Source of the DNA: an archaeon
Lineage (GTDB): Archaea > Asgardarchaeota > Thorarchaeia > Thorarchaeales > Thorarchaeaceae
NCBI GenBank assembly: GCA_024275415.1
Contig: JAJRZD010000065.1
Span: 1-5,625, forward strand
Length of the DNA stretch: 5,625 nucleotides
Direction of reading: 5' to 3'
In this document: positions 944 to 5,625 of the stretch, in pieces
Layout of the letters: the number at the start of each line of letters is the position of its first letter
Position numbering within the stretch: the first letter of the stretch is position 1
Position numbers and translations under genes: made by a program
The notes under the pieces: generated by a model
Told to the model about the DNA's origin: nothing
Database searches by the model: none
The model's input: the letters and a program-made list of their open reading frames with translations, nothing else

Positions 944-1049
944 TGGTGCCGAGGGAGTGAGTTCCACGAAGGGGGAAATCCCCAGTCGATTTGAACACTC
1001 GACGACACGGTCTTCAGCCGTGCGATCTCCCGGGCTAATCTACCTCGGC
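944..1049 (-). tRNA. tRNA-Phe(GAA) with a 29-nt intron in the T-loop (59/60); CCA encoded
   Basis: Minus strand: acceptor GCCGAGG/CCTCGGC, discriminator A, CCA. D-arm GATT-AGCCCGGGA-GATC. Anticodon arm CACGG-CTGAAGA-CCGTG (GAA at 1015-1013, G37). Variable loop TCGTC. T-stem GAGTG/CACTC. Removing 989-961 restores the T-loop TTCAAAT and a 77-nt tRNA. Confidence 0.96.
961..989 (-). other. tRNA intron, position 59/60, bulge-helix-bulge (BHB) motif
   Basis: GAGTG-TTCA-AAT-CGA...TCG-TGGA-ACT-CACTC: exon helix, 4-bp central helix TTCA/TGGA (one G-U), two 3-nt bulges, intron helix CGA/TCG, internal hairpin GGGG-ATTT-CCCC. Cutting after nt 2 of each bulge gives exactly TTCAAAT. Confidence 0.93.
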
Positions 1050-1074
1050 TTGATTTCAATACGATTGCCCTTGT

Positions 1075-1082
1075 AATATAAA
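1075..1082 (-). promoter_or_regulatory. TATA box of tRNA-Phe
   Basis: Minus strand TTTATATT ending about 26 nt upstream of tRNA position 1 (1049), the standard archaeal spacing. Confidence 0.7.
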
Positions 1083-1095
1083 GGTAACGAGCCCA

Positions 1096-1620
1096 TCAGC
1101 GGATTTTGTGTGCCATGTAGCTTGCAACAATAGCGGTCAGTATGGCAGCAACATTCACACCGAGAGGATACACAAGTAACGAATCAAGGAATGACAGTGT
1201 GGCCAACCATGATGGCAGATTCGCAAAGTCCGAGATACCAAATGGCACGAAGTAGAACATCAGGAAAATGCTTGTTGTAAGAGCAACACCTACAAACGCT
1301 GGCATGTCCTCTTTCGACCTAGCGAACTCTGAGAGCTTGGTAATCAAATTCGACTTAGCCTTCTGACGCCTTCTGATCTTTCGCTTCGACATGATGTGTG
1401 CCCAGCGATACATGGCCTCTGCCATGAGCACATATGCACCCGCAAGGACAGCCATCGCTCCCAGTGCGACAATCAATTGCAGTTCCGCACTCAATACTTG
1501 CACGTACTCGGATGCATGCCACATCAGTGGGATCTGAACGAATCCTGCAATCCCAAGGAATATGAGGATAAGTCCTGGCTTACTTCCGCGTTTCCACCAA
1601 ATTGCTAAGCTCATGGTCAT
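1096..1620 (-). CDS. Hypothetical membrane protein (about 4 TM spans, polybasic central loop)
   Basis: 174-aa ORF with two hydrophobic hairpins separated by KRKIRRRQKAK. SD-like AGGTAG directly before ATG. It fills the space between the hydrolase gene and the tRNA promoter. No family recognised. Confidence 0.8.
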   Translation of the reverse strand: MTMSLAIWWKRGSKPGLILIFLGIAGFVQIPLMWHASEYVQVLSAELQLIVALGAMAVLAGAYVLMAEAMYRWAHIMSKRKIRRRQKAKSNLITKLSEFARSKEDMPAFVGVALTTSIFLMFYFVPFGISDFANLPSWLATLSFLDSLLVYPLGVNVAAILTAIVASYMAHKIR

Positions 1621-1660
1621 CTACCTGTCTGAGGCTATCCGCCCAGAAATCCAGTCCGCT

Positions 1661-1672
1661 CTTTAAGCTTTT
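1661..1672 (-). promoter_or_regulatory. Candidate BRE/TATA element for the 1096-1620 gene, overlapping the stop codon of the upstream gene
   Basis: Minus strand AAAAGCTTAAAG about 40 nt upstream of ATG 1620. It resembles purine-rich BRE plus TTAAA. Confidence 0.35.
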
Positions 1673-2766
1673 GGAATGAAAAGTCGATTAGCGACCAACG
1701 CGTACATCAACGGGATATTACGGAGTGCCGGATAGTCAGGCGGAGTTATCGTTGGGAGCCGTGATAGGGCTATCTGGGTCACGAATCCAACATACCCGTG
1801 TGCTTTCGCATAGACGTATGATTCCGCCACGTTCTCAGAGGAAGTTGCATAATCCACTACGAAGACTGTCTTTCCGCGGGACAGATACAGATCCAATCGC
1901 TCTGTGTACCACTCCGTGCTATATCCGTCACTCTCGTTCGAAGGTATCCTGATATCCCCCGAGCCTTGCTCGCCCCAAGGAGTGTCTGCGATGCCATCAA
2001 ATAGAATATGCTCCTGTGCAACCGCATCTATCCGATCGAAGTACTCCTCATGTCCTTCGTAGATAGAAAGTGCATTCTGTGCGATTATCAGAAACTCGGC
2101 GTTCCGCGCCCTGCAATACTGGCGAATCTCACCAATGAAGTCAATCATCTCTTGTTGGGCATTAATCCCCTCTTCAGTAGCAACATCTACCACTGGCCCG
2201 TAGTCATATGCCTCTATCCAGTCCATGTATATCCCGTCAAACCCATCATCTAGGACTTGTTGGATGCTGCTATTGTTACCATAGAGTATGATCTCCTTCC
2301 ATTCGTCATACCAGAACGCGACTGGATAATTTCCTTCCCATCCGTCCGGATCAATCGATACAAGGAACTCCGGCGTACCTCTTTCGGATTCTGTTGGCGC
2401 CACCCACGAACCATTCCAGTACCACCGCCAGTCCTCAGCCTGTCCTATATCGACATACGCAATGACCAACTTTGAATCCAAGTTCGCACCAGAACTGTCA
2501 TGCAATCGCCTCACCATCCCCGCCGTATCAAAGTCTGTTGCATCCCGGTCACTCCGTGTCGGCTCTAGGACAAGGAGGTCGTACTTGGACTCGATGAGCG
2601 CCTCGACCGCGCCATCCTCTTCAAGCCCTTGGATCTGATACGCCCAGAACTCGACATCCTGTATCCCTTCCTGAGCGGTCGGGGTCTGCCTTTGCAGATA
2701 GAGTACCACAACAAAAGAGGTGCTGAAAATGAGGATGGAAATGATGATAGCCGTTCGCCGTCGCAT
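1663..2766 (-). CDS. GH114 / TM1410-MJ1477-family endo-alpha-1,4-polygalactosaminidase-like hydrolase with N-terminal signal or membrane anchor
   Basis: Recognised motifs WAYQIQGL, YDLLVLEP, VIAYVDIGQAEDWRWYW, WEGNYPVAFWYDEW, GFDGIYMDWIEAY, IIAQNA, IDAVAQEH. The candidate catalytic D (YMD) and E (AQE) are present. The N-terminus MRRR plus about 20 hydrophobic residues suggests export. Confidence 0.88.
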   Translation of the reverse strand: MRRRTAIIISILIFSTSFVVVLYLQRQTPTAQEGIQDVEFWAYQIQGLEEDGAVEALIESKYDLLVLEPTRSDRDATDFDTAGMVRRLHDSSGANLDSKLVIAYVDIGQAEDWRWYWNGSWVAPTESERGTPEFLVSIDPDGWEGNYPVAFWYDEWKEIILYGNNSSIQQVLDDGFDGIYMDWIEAYDYGPVVDVATEEGINAQQEMIDFIGEIRQYCRARNAEFLIIAQNALSIYEGHEEYFDRIDAVAQEHILFDGIADTPWGEQGSGDIRIPSNESDGYSTEWYTERLDLYLSRGKTVFVVDYATSSENVAESYVYAKAHGYVGFVTQIALSRLPTITPPDYPALRNIPLMYALVANRLFIPKA

Positions 2767-2805
2767 ATGTGACCTGATACACCATCTGACTCATTTGTCT
2801 TGTGC

Positions 2806-3375
2806 CTATGGTTTCCTGCCTTCAATCGAGAAGGTGTAGCCATTCATTGACAGCCTTTCAACGGAGAATCCCGTATCACTGAGTACCCGCACCAACCGTT
2901 CAGGGGTCTGATCCTGTCGTCCTGCGACCCGAAAGCCGAAGCGCGATGTCGAGCCATCAGGGAATATGAAATCCACCGGAATCGACACTTGACTCTCTTC
3001 ACAGTTTATCAGGCACGCCTTTATTGAGAGGCGAGCTCGCCCCTTCAGCACACGGTACACTTCAGCAAGCACCTTTCGTTTAGCCTCCCAAGTCCGCATG
3101 TACGCCAGCGAGAACCAGATGGTCGCCACATCGAAGGTTTCCTCGGTAAAGCACAGTGCCATCGCGTCACAGGCAAACCAGCTCGCAACCTGAGGGTATA
3201 TCCGCGCCTCCCTGATCTTGTTGATGTTGATATCAACTGCGCAGACGCGTCCCCCCTCCAGTCGTGAAACCAGCCCCTCTCCGCCACCGCCAATGTCAAT
3301 AATCAATCCTTGTCCCCCCACACTTTCAAGCGCGACCTTCTGTAAGGGGATATCGCAAACCTCGCCTTGCTTCAT
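2806..3375 (-). CDS. Class I SAM-dependent methyltransferase (Methyltransf_11-like)
   Basis: Motif I IIDIGGGGEG, then VCAVDIN, CDAMALCFTEETFDVA and EVYRVLK. Start placed at ATG 3375 because GAGTGA (SD-like) lies just upstream. The ORF track's GTG at 3384 is the alternative. Substrate unknown. Confidence 0.88.
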   Translation of the reverse strand: MKQGEVCDIPLQKVALESVGGQGLIIDIGGGGEGLVSRLEGGRVCAVDININKIREARIYPQVASWFACDAMALCFTEETFDVATIWFSLAYMRTWEAKRKVLAEVYRVLKGRARLSIKACLINCEESQVSIPVDFIFPDGSTSRFGFRVAGRQDQTPERLVRVLSDTGFSVERLSMNGYTFSIEGRKP

Positions 3376-3482
3376 TTCTATCACTCTTCAGTCCTTACAG
3401 ATACTGTACGTAGCTGTCGTGGGACTGTCTGCCTCTCTAACCGTGATGTCCGTACACCTAAACATATTTCACTCCGCAATTC

Positions 3483-3488
3483 TTTTAA
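3483..3488 (+). promoter_or_regulatory. Candidate TATA box of tRNA-Ala
   Basis: TTTTAA about 40 nt upstream of mature position 1 (3529), implying a leader of roughly 15 nt. Confidence 0.5.
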
Positions 3489-3549
3489 CCATTCCATCGT
3501 GCAAGACCAATCACACATGTCACACATTGGGCCGGTAGATCAGCCCGGT

Positions 3550-3580
3550 TGTCTTGTCCATTCGTGGGCTCGATAGGGAC
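3550..3580 (+). other. tRNA intron in the D-loop (~20/21), 31 nt, relaxed bulge-helix-loop motif; boundaries uncertain by 1-2 nt
   Basis: The D-stem halves are separated by 40 nt instead of 9. Proposed motif: H CCCG/AGGG (3 of 4 pairs), 5' bulge GTT, intron helix GTC/GAT, 3' bulge ACA facing AG. The product D-loop AGCCCGGTA matches the intron-free AGCCCGGGA of the tRNA-Phe in length and at 8 of 9 bases. Confidence 0.8.
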
Positions 3581-3597
3581 AGATCGCCTCCTTGGCA

Positions 3598-3625
3598 CTT
3601 GTAACGCATAGGCGTACTTCCAAAA
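3598..3625 (+). other. tRNA intron at canonical 37/38, 28 nt
   Basis: CCTCC-TTGG-CAC...CCAA-AAT-GGAGG: perfect central helix TTGG/CCAA and two 3-nt bulges. The intron helix begins with TT/TT mismatches, then GT/AC and ACGC/GCGT. Spliced loop TTGGCAT. Confidence 0.93.
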
Positions 3626-3757
3626 TGGAGGAGGTCCCGAGTTCAAATCTCGGCCGGTCCACCAATTTCTCTATAGGAATTGCATATGATGTCTAAGTTG
3701 TGTCAAAAGACGAGTAGTTGGGAATTATGAGGATTCCAATTCGAGTGACCCGATTAG

Positions 3758-4125
3758 GTGGATATTAACTCGATAGGACAAATTACTACAATATTGAAAG
3801 AAAATTACATACTGCTGGATCTCTTTTTAGTTCATATGACTTTGTCAATGATCGTGGTAGTGGGAACGTTACTAATCATCGGTGGTCTAATAGGTATAGT
3901 TTCTTCTTCTATCTTTAATCGAGTTTCTACGAAACCTTACGATACGAATCTCAAGTATTCACTATTAGTGTCCGTTCTACTTTAATCAGCAGCATTATTG
4001 TATCACAACTATTGTTTGTTTCACCAATAATCATTTTTCAACCTTATATTGGATCCTTGGTTCTTATATGTGCAATAATTGCAAGATACGTTTCGCTAGA
4101 AAAAGAAACTGTAGATAAGCAATGA
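3758..4125 (+). pseudogene. Small membrane-protein gene split by an apparent 1-nt frameshift near 3980 (pseudogene or sequence error)
   Basis: Frame 2 (3758-3985) ends in the middle of a hydrophobic span (SLLVSVLL*). Frame 1 continues LISSIIVSQLLFVSPIIIFQPYIGSLVLICAIIARYVSLEKETVDKQ to TGA 4123-4125. One extra T in CTTTAA would fuse them to about 122 aa. Frame 1 is open from 3919, so the shift could lie earlier. Confidence 0.55.
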
Positions 4126-4130
4126 AGAAA

Positions 4131-4208
4131 CTAGTCGATTCCAGATTGCACTGGTATCATGATAAGAATACCACTTAGGAGTAGCATTACTACAAATATG
4201 TTCATCAT
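4131..4208 (-). CDS. Possible 25-aa hydrophobic mini-protein or gene remnant (MMNIFVVMLLLSGILIMIPVQSGID)
   Basis: C-terminal part of the 4131-4337 ORF. It has an ATGATG start after purine-rich GATGAGAGAAAA and one uninterrupted hydrophobic span. Too short to be sure. Confidence 0.25.
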   Translation of the reverse strand: MMNIFVVMLLLSGILIMIPVQSGID

Positions 4209-4329
4209 TTTTCTCTCATCGCTACCGGAACTCGAAAACTTAGTTTTCTTTTTCCAATACGTAGAAACTTGGCAGAAAGTCTTCCAAAGATATATTGGAC
4301 TATTTCTAGGGACTAGCAGAAAGGACGGT

Positions 4330-4791
4330 TTATGCATTATCGTCTATTTCAGACAGCACAACACTGGTGACGGTTCGTTCAATCCCGTCAATGTTCCTGA
4401 GTTTCGAGATCACGAACTCATTGAGGGCGTCAACGTCTGGGAGGGCAATCCTAACGATGAGGTCGATCTCGCCGGTCACAATGGACACACGCTCAACTTC
4501 AGGGAAGGCATCTATCTGCCTTGCGACCTCATATTGGTCGATTCTATGACTGCTTCCAGTCCTGTACGAGATTGTGCAGAGGATATAGGCAACAAGTCCT
4601 CTACCAATCTTTTTCCTATCAGCAACAATAGTGAATCTTCTGATGACCCCATCGTCCCTCATCCTCTTGATGCGGTTATGGATTGTGGTTTGCGGAATGT
4701 TGAGTATCTTGGACATCTTTCCGGTTGTCATACGGGCATCTTTCTTTAGCAGCGAGAGGATATCAAGATCCTTTTGATCGAGACTAGGCAT
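4330..4791 (-). CDS. Lrp/AsnC-family transcriptional regulator
   Basis: N-terminal HTH LDQKDLDILSLLKKDARM...TIHNRIKRMRDDGVIRRFT and C-terminal RAM domain (VSIVTGEIDLIVRI...IRNIDGIERTVTS-type pattern, here LRNIDGIERTVTS). ATG 4791 gives a typical 153 aa. ATG 4809 is possible. The track's 4872 start adds a non-family extension. Confidence 0.93.
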   Translation of the reverse strand: MPSLDQKDLDILSLLKKDARMTTGKMSKILNIPQTTIHNRIKRMRDDGVIRRFTIVADRKKIGRGLVAYILCTISYRTGSSHRIDQYEVARQIDAFPEVERVSIVTGEIDLIVRIALPDVDALNEFVISKLRNIDGIERTVTSVVLSEIDDNA

Positions 4792-4827
4792 GGTGGAAAA
4801 TAATTCCATTTTGAGTACATTAATCTG

Positions 4828-4841
4828 ACTATCTTGATAGT
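4828..4841. promoter_or_regulatory. Perfect palindrome ACTATC-TT-GATAGT in the Lrp/asnA divergent intergenic region; candidate operator
   Basis: 6-bp inverted repeat with a 2-nt spacer, located between the two divergent starts. Function is inferred. Confidence 0.45.
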
Positions 4842-4914
4842 TTACCCGATTTTTATTGCAAATCTTTTTCATTTCAGGGTCCTACACCATCCATAGCTTG
4901 GAAGATGAATCAGG

Positions 4915-5625
4915 ATGACCACACACACCTTTAAACGACCTACAGATGGAACCGGCATCCATTCGGAGCGGTTTTCTGACATATTCCGCATACAGACTGT
5001 GGCCTTAAAGAGCATCCATGATTTTCTCTCGGGTGCGGGGCTTGTCCAACTAATGCCAGTGATAATCTCCGCAGTGACGGATCCTCTGAATCACAGTGTA
5101 CATGAAGCGCGAATAAAGTATCAGGGGCAGAGTTTACAACTTACGAAAAGTATGATATTCCACAAACAGGTTGCCATCTCACTCCTTGGAGTCAATGGCA
5201 TCTACATTGTATCACCGAATGTGAGACTGGAACGAGAGGAAAGCAACAGGCATCTCCTAGAGTTCTCGCAGATAGACATCGAACTACGAGGCGCAAGTGC
5301 CAAACAGTTCCGATCATTCATAGAGGATATGATGGTTCGGATATTCTCAGATGTCGAGGATTCATGCTCTGTTGAGCTTGAGCGTCTTGGCACTAGTATA
5401 AGCATACCAAAGAAACCTTTCCGTGTCTATTCGAAATGGGATCTAGTCGACGAGTTCGGCTCAGGATTCGAACAAAGGATTTCTAAAGAGGAAGAGGACC
5501 TCTTCTGGATAACGGATTTTGAGAGAGAGTTCTATGACAGAGAAGATCCTGAGCGGAAAGGACATTATCACAACTATGACCTATTCTATCCCAATGGATA
5601 TCACGAGGCTTTGTCGGGTGGTGAG
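4915..5625 (+). CDS. asnA: Archaeal asparagine synthetase A (AsnRS/AspRS catalytic-core paralogue lacking the anticodon-binding domain), 3'-truncated
   Basis: Absent from the ORF track because there is no stop in the window. Translated by hand: 237 open codons from ATG 4915 (in-frame TGA at 4906 fixes the start). MTTHTF...PVIISAVTDPLNH...LTKSMIFHKQVAI...SPNVRLE...RHLLEFSQIDIE...FWITDFEREFYDRED...YHNYDLFYP...EALSGGE. Class II aaRS motif 2 (RxE..RHxxEF) and SGGE(R) are present, with no N-terminal OB fold. Confidence 0.9.
   Translation, partial: MTTHTFKRPTDGTGIHSERFSDIFRIQTVALKSIHDFLSGAGLVQLMPVIISAVTDPLNHSVHEARIKYQGQSLQLTKSMIFHKQVAISLLGVNGIYIVSPNVRLEREESNRHLLEFSQIDIELRGASAKQFRSFIEDMMVRIFSDVEDSCSVELERLGTSISIPKKPFRVYSKWDLVDEFGSGFEQRISKEEEDLFWITDFEREFYDREDPERKGHYHNYDLFYPNGYHEALSGGE

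Follow-up and report, generated by a model that had tools for sequence, protein, structure and literature searches.

A 5,625-nt contig of a Thorarchaeota metagenome-assembled genome (MAG), analysed here over its whole length as a single window, carries two transfer RNA (tRNA) genes that are interrupted three times in three different arms. The locus raises the question of whether genes of this kind encode working tRNAs and, if so, whether the window is an exceptional site or a sample of an intron-rich genome. An earlier note on this DNA had placed introns of 29, 31 and 28 nt in the T-loop, the D-loop and the anticodon loop, respectively, and these sizes, the arms and the outer coordinates proved exact. 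The genes are very probably functional, single-copy genes for tRNA-Phe(GAA) and tRNA-Ala(GGC) of Thorarchaeota, with introns that would be removed by protein enzymes at bulge-helix-bulge (BHB) motifs. Rather than being a special locus, the window samples a genome whose introns number approximately one for each tRNA gene and are non-canonical in two thirds of cases.

The tRNA-Phe(GAA) and tRNA-Ala(GGC) genes

Standard annotation tools give little sign of either gene. ARAGORN with default settings predicts no tRNA gene in the window and, with introns allowed, miscalls tRNA-Ala(GGC) as Gly(tcc). An Rfam search returns nothing for the window tRNA-Phe and a single partial, sub-threshold match on the Ala gene (3595-3661; 24.5 bits, gathering score 29). 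Both genes were delineated using a parser of our own, which fits a cloverleaf with one insertion permitted per arm and whose first step is independent of any splice motif. The sequence was also read by hand. The tRNA-Phe gene has a parser score of 75 and the tRNA-Ala gene a score of 71. When the identical genome-wide pipeline was applied to the reversed genome as a control for chance, the top score was 54; all accepted genes score at least 62. Splice motifs are given below as (h,H,h'): outer-helix length, number of paired positions in the four-position central helix and inner-helix length, in that order.

The tRNA-Phe(GAA) gene is found on the minus strand (944-1049; exon 1: 990-1049, exon 2: 944-960). 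It has the acceptor strands GCCGAGG and CCTCGGC, the anticodon loop CTGAAGA and an encoded CCA. The 29-nt T-loop intron (961-989, minus strand) separates positions 59 and 60 and has a strict hBHBh' motif (5,4,3). In this motif, the T-stem is the 5-bp outer helix, TTCA:TGGA forms a fully paired central helix (4/4) and a 3-bp inner helix is present; the inner hairpin has an ATTTC loop. Following removal of the intron, the window tRNA-Phe differs from intron-free orthologs (such as that of the related genome G013) only by a single variable-loop base. The boundaries of the Phe intron are therefore fixed independently of the motif.

The tRNA-Ala(GGC) gene is found on the plus strand (3529-3664; exons 3529-3549, 3581-3597 and 3626-3664) and has both the G3:U70 pair and an encoded CCA. 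Its first intron (31 nt; 3550-3580, plus strand) is inserted in the D-loop between positions 20 and 21 and has a relaxed HBh' motif (0,3,3). This motif is without an outer helix, and its central helix consists of three base pairs and a G.A mismatch. Taking out these 31 nt leaves the D-arm GATCAGCCCGGTAGATC, which is identical to that of the intron-free tRNA-Ala(CGC) gene on contig C77, and so the boundaries of this intron are also fixed independently of the motif. An alternative D-loop splice on a perfect AGCC:GGCT helix was rejected, as it would leave a 15-nt D-loop and conflicts with the Ala(CGC) paralog. The second intron (28 nt; 3598-3625, plus strand) is at the canonical position 37/38 and has a motif score of (5,4,0). 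Its outer helix is the anticodon stem, its central helix is TTGG:CCAA and its 3' bulge is a clean 3 nt (AAT). Minimum-energy folding turns its 5' bulge into a wider, 5x2 internal loop. The motifs thus comprise two relaxed examples (both in the Ala gene) and one strict one, as had been proposed. From the canonical Ala intron a local splice rule can be derived: two 3-nt bulges lie on either side of a 4-bp helix, and each is cut after its second nucleotide. This rule is then satisfied by the Phe 59/60 intron and the Ala D-loop intron.

The proposed model for maturation of these transcripts is as follows. Folding of each pre-tRNA would place all intron boundaries in 3-nt bulges that adjoin a 4-bp helix. 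A heteromeric, (alpha-beta)2-type endonuclease, made up of a catalytic alpha subunit encoded on contig C69 and a structural subunit encoded on contig C117 that has no catalytic histidine, would cut after the second nucleotide of each bulge. A lysine in the specificity loop of the alpha subunit may also permit cleavage at relaxed motifs, such as the HBh' site in the D-loop. The exons would be joined by RtcB with the aid of archease. Removal of the introns restores the complete cloverleaf, the G3:U70 identity element and the CCA.

tRNA introns in the host genome and its relatives

The MAG (G000) consists of 3.5 Mb in 127 contigs and has a GC content of 47%. The second of its two splicing endonuclease (EndA) paralogs has its nearest homologs (38 loci, 52-75% identity) exclusively in MAGs of Candidatus Thorarchaeota or Promethearchaeota. 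The host is therefore an Asgard archaeon and not a member of the Thermoproteales, in keeping with the earlier note's suggestion of an intron expansion possibly independent of that order.

tRNA genes were surveyed, without recourse to splice motifs, as the union of Rfam matches, ARAGORN matches and a genome-wide CCA-anchored search, with class II tRNAs and odd cases curated by hand. The CCA-anchored search for hidden genes was possible because every tRNA gene found encodes its 3' CCA (46/46). The census contains 46 tRNA genes, which represent 45 of the 46 standard archaeal anticodons and tRNA-Sec. The window genes are the sole copies of their anticodons. Thirteen genes are intron-free and 33 are interrupted (72%). 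They contain 46 introns in total: 16 at the canonical position (37/38) and 30 at non-canonical positions, the latter in the D-arm (10), the anticodon stem (1), the region from position 43 to the variable arm (8) and the T-arm (11, including five at 59/60 and three at 53/54). Among the interrupted genes, eleven have at least two introns, with three each in tRNA-Lys(CTT) and tRNA-Trp. By our own thresholds, 24 of the 46 motifs are strict-like, 12 are HBh', five are hBH and five are weak or irregular. The central helix is fully paired in 28 introns and has three of four positions paired in 16, such that 44/46 introns have at least three pairs. The heavy non-canonical load that the earlier note had predicted from two genes is thus a property of the whole genome, and neither a mostly intron-free or canonical-only tRNA complement nor a Thermoproteales host emerged from the census and the homolog search.

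The prediction of many hidden tRNAs also held. Rfam missed 11/46 genes and ARAGORN with introns allowed missed 11/46. Six genes (Phe, Val-CAC, Pro-TGG, Asp, Lys-CTT and Trp) were missed by both Rfam (E<=1) and ARAGORN. ARAGORN with introns allowed also mis-types many genes because a single intron is forced. As standard finders miss or mis-type many Asgard tRNA genes, apparent tRNA gaps in such MAGs are annotation artefacts. One of the genes missed by both tools, tRNA-Trp (C82:8872-9093), is unusual in another respect: one of its three introns is an 80-nt canonical intron, and a 13-nt variable region remains, which is odd for a class I tRNA.

For tRNA-Ala(GGC), the comparison covered intact genes from 11 genomes (the host and ten relatives). 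The D-loop intron is found at the same site in 9/11 of these, with a hairpin that co-varies and a diverged sequence; G017 and G006 lack it. Of the ten relatives, nine have the canonical intron in their ortholog, the exception being G014. In G011, this gene has an additional intron at 53/54. The Ala introns are old, being common to at least seven genera with diverged sequences. The Phe 59/60 intron is found in five genomes (the host, G005, G012, G004 and G009) and shows compensatory stem changes. Eight genomes, including two of the same genus, have an intron-free tRNA-Phe gene, and others have an intron at a different site: 53/54 in G008, 37/38 in G017 and G007, and the D-loop in G010. tRNA-Phe thus has five different intron states inside one family. 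Within the family, the window introns are passed down and are often lost or gained, and gene-by-gene comparison shows that intron presence flips between close relatives. In G012, G017, G016 and G007, a single contig has matches to both the Phe and the Ala query, separated by approximately 2-3 kb. Both genes could be parsed only in G012 and G017, the Ala-query match in G016 and G007 being to the 3' part only. These matches suggest that Phe-Ala synteny is conserved.

The introns are similar to one another in size and form. Their median length is 30 nt, and 39/46 are 28-33 nt in length. Most can be folded into 1 nt, a 9-bp stem closed by a 5-nt loop and a 6-nt tail. An A-N-T-Y-C pentaloop is found at intron positions 11-15 in nine introns, including that of the window tRNA-Phe, where approximately 0.24 would be expected by chance, although this motif was picked post hoc after inspection of the data. 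GGAA and TGGAA are over-represented in the 3' tails (z = 4.5-5.1). In the orthologous Phe introns of relatives, the pentaloop is retained while the stems co-vary. One tentative interpretation, which we consider rather unlikely, is that the ~30-nt Thorarchaeota introns are a single stereotyped class of element (one unpaired nt, 9-bp stem, 5-nt and often A-N-T-Y-C loop, 6-nt and often GGAA-rich tail) instead of unrelated inserts, with the loop kept through a bound factor or a shared mobile origin. If this were the case, the window Phe intron, with its ATTTC loop, would belong to an undescribed family of mini-introns whose spread was separate from copying of the Thermoproteales type. This stereotypy (~30 nt, 9-bp stem, A-N-T-Y-C loop) is the one less-described point of the present analysis.

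The same uniformity could be read as the trace of a recent burst in which introns were copied between the tRNA genes of this genome, as in the Thermoproteales. Such an origin of the intron load is very unlikely. The mean of the ten best pairwise intron scores is slightly above that of shuffled sequences (18.9 versus 17.4 +/- 0.7), but the best pairwise similarity is at chance level. The all-against-all comparison that the earlier note had proposed as a source of evidence for transposition was run as local alignment of the 46 introns, and its maximum score of 23 compares with 20.5 +/- 2.1 for shuffled introns (7/60 shuffles equal it). The comparison gave no transposition signal, and no closely related introns were found in different tRNA types among the 46 introns compared. 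The age of the Ala introns also argues against a recent burst. In a 2026 preprint, intron families shared across tRNAs amount to 1.5% in Asgard archaea and 28% in the Thermoproteales (10.64898/2026.10.13.758758).

Published work already covers richness in tRNA introns and the type of splicing enzyme in Asgard archaea, with a Thorarchaeota genome among them (PMC5829648; PMC11291895; 10.64898/2026.10.13.758758). The richness was described by Valentin-Alvarado 2024 (PMC11291895), and Thorarchaeota SMTZ1-83 was included by Kaneta et al. 2018 (PMC5829648). The preprint of Goswami et al. 2026 (10.64898/2026.10.13.758758) gives 0.91 introns per gene in 'other Asgard families' and 2.2 in Freyr-, Jordi- and Atabeyarchaeaceae, with median intron lengths of 22-23 nt, and concludes in favor of 'repeated gains'. 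The family-wide inheritance with frequent gain and loss described above matches this conclusion. The host has approximately 1.0 intron per gene, which is near the first of these values and below the second, whereas its intron lengths are centred on 30 nt. In other respects, the introns are like those published for the same phylum-level group: they are multiple and non-canonical with BHB motifs, and those of the D-arm are overlooked by standard callers. The presence of two EndA paralogs, the repeated gain and loss among relatives and the lack of a signal of inter-tRNA copying are likewise shared. The census contributes a Thorarchaeota genome, worked out in full, to what has been published on Asgard archaea. 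Its main value is as a caution and a data point, and it opens no new question.

Non-canonical and multiple tRNA introns of the Thermoproteales were reportedly described by Marck & Grosjean in 2003, Sugahara in 2008 and Fujishima in 2010. The host resembles the Thermoproteales in its intron positions (59/60, 53/54, D-loop and variable region), in its mixture of strict and relaxed BHB motifs and in an enzyme type with a specificity loop. The share of interrupted genes is also similar, at 72% in the host and ~70% in the Thermoproteales (PMC11291895). The host differs in that it belongs to a different superphylum and has no recurrent intron families across tRNA types, so that the defining signature of transposition is absent.

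The splicing endonuclease and its partners

The host genome encodes two proteins with both EndA domains (PF02778 and PF01974), one on C69 (190 aa) and one on C117 (213 aa). A third PF01974 match on C43 (12 bits, E-value: 0.46) was rejected as noise; it overlaps tRNA-Glu(CTC). The C69 protein aligns end to end with the catalytic subunit of Aeropyrum pernix (3P1Z_B; 152 bits), and its histidine aligns with the residue mutated to alanine in 3AJV_B. The protein has a 9-residue insert, IRKPKSPEF, which is absent from the C117 paralog. This insert aligns with the K44 loop of the A. pernix alpha subunit (IRKPKS versus VEKPRG, with a shared 'KP' context), in which Lys44 confers broad substrate specificity (PMC5829648). 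GIRKPK, Tyr128, His136 and Lys167 are invariant across 23 Asgard alpha sequences.

The C117 paralog is strongly conserved, and its catalytic histidine is replaced by Thr, Ala, Ser, Val or Asn in 17/17 sequences. It is labelled beta here because of this missing histidine and because of the literature, in which Asgard EndA is an (alpha-beta)2 enzyme with an L1/CSL loop (Kaneta et al. 2018, PMC5829648). Of the 31 genomes searched across the phylum, 28 have both paralogs. A complex prediction for alpha and the second paralog gave a score of 0.16 (mark: 0.32), which weighs neither way. Judged by its sequence, the host EndA is of the known (alpha-beta)2 layout with an L1/CSL loop, and a heterotetramer is predicted. 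The earlier note had called for an enzyme of either broad specificity or new architecture. The first part is supported, with an alpha subunit that has the Tyr/His/Lys triad and a specificity loop and a paralog that has no catalytic histidine, but the second is not.

A new architecture, such as a fused, epsilon2-like enzyme or one with a third subunit, is very unlikely. The idea draws on the form of the Thorarchaeote partner, a full-length two-domain protein of 213 aa with an acidic N-terminal extension and retained Tyr and Lys residues, which is unlike the short beta subunit of Pyrobaculum; in addition, the (alpha-beta)2 assembly is a prediction. The alpha subunit is close to that of A. pernix (PDB 3P1Z, 3AJV) in its full-length alignment, its Tyr/His/Lys residues and its lysine-bearing loop insert, and it is the partner that differs from the A. 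pernix system. Only two EndA-domain genes are present, neither of them fused nor triplicated, and the same two-gene layout extends across the phylum and has been published as (alpha-beta)2 (PMC5829648).

RtcB and archease, the remaining components of the proposed (alpha-beta)2-based splicing pathway, are both encoded in the genome. Approximately 1.4 kb separate the second EndA paralog from a group of tRNA-Tyr, tRNA-Arg(TCG) and tRNA-Arg(CCT) genes (C117:27099-29810), and the start of the archease gene is approximately 100 bp from tRNA-Ser(TGA) (C43:79662-80292). Splicing genes thus adjoin intron-bearing tRNA genes.

Status of the interrupted genes and their surroundings

That the two genes are pseudogenes in decay or copies broken by insertions, with the real tRNAs encoded elsewhere, is highly improbable: the assembly is incomplete and tRNA fragments do occur in the lineage (a truncated tRNA-Phe duplicate in G012 and a tRNA-Leu(TAG) 3' fragment on C82 of the host), but no second Phe(GAA) or Ala(GGC) gene was found in any genome search, the cloverleaf, G3:U70 and CCA are perfect after removal of introns that sit at BHB geometry, different genera retain the intron sites with hairpins that have changed in a compensatory manner, and the same reading would make pseudogenes of 72% of all tRNA genes.

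Several points count against the view that these are functional genes with protein-spliced introns. The MAG is 92.9% complete with 4.5% contamination, and tRNA-Asn(GTT) was not found genome-wide by any route used. By our own scoring, 5/30 non-canonical introns have a poor or irregular motif. The clearest example is the tRNA-Lys(UUU) gene (C117:14752-14889), which has a 35-nt insertion near position 43 with boundaries that misfit BHB geometry; a well-formed inner motif was considered as the splice site for this gene and rejected, as its use would leave 13 extra nt. The C117 paralog, with its retained Tyr and Lys, is nearer to the catalytic subunits of Methanopyrus kandleri and Methanocaldococcus jannaschii than to crenarchaeal beta subunits. 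Finally, splicing of the transcripts, alpha-beta assembly and the widening of specificity by the loop in the Thorarchaeote enzyme are all predictions from sequence comparison, and for splicing this too must be set on the opposing side.

The remainder of the window is occupied mainly by protein-coding genes. A membrane protein fragment (1-852) precedes tRNA-Phe(GAA). Between the two tRNA genes are genes encoding a small membrane protein (1096-1620), a GH114 glycoside hydrolase (1663-2766) and a methyltransferase (2806-3384). Downstream of tRNA-Ala(GGC) are an Lrp/AsnC regulator (4330-4872) and, at the contig end, a fragment that is either class II AspRS/AsnRS-like or AsnA-like (4915-5625). The region directly downstream of tRNA-Ala (3665-4330) is AT-rich, with a GC content of 33-40% compared to 47% for the genome, and contains only small open reading frames (ORFs) without a Pfam match. 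No copy of the tRNA 3' end was found in 3665-4330.

Such copies are found in two relatives. The last ~25-49 nt of tRNA-Ala(GGC) recur six to eight times at a spacing of 0.4-4.6 kb in G005 (C9:1-12500) and G002 (C172:1-6300), in the latter case downstream of the intact gene; they are not found in the window. Between the copies are one to three unrelated ORFs, encoding a DNA methylase fragment and LVIVD-repeat, PepSY, nucleotidyltransferase, APH-type kinase, NosD-like beta-helix and flavin reductase proteins. This arrangement looks like a cassette array or a series of integrations, either of which would be anchored on the tRNA 3' end. In the host itself, a partial duplicate of tRNA-Leu(TAG) (C82:~7480-7583) is located 2.4 kb downstream of the intact gene (C82:4969-5086). 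The duplicate extends from approximately position 26 to the CCA end and includes the variable-arm intron, a pattern that would be expected from duplication of an att site by a tRNA-integrated element.

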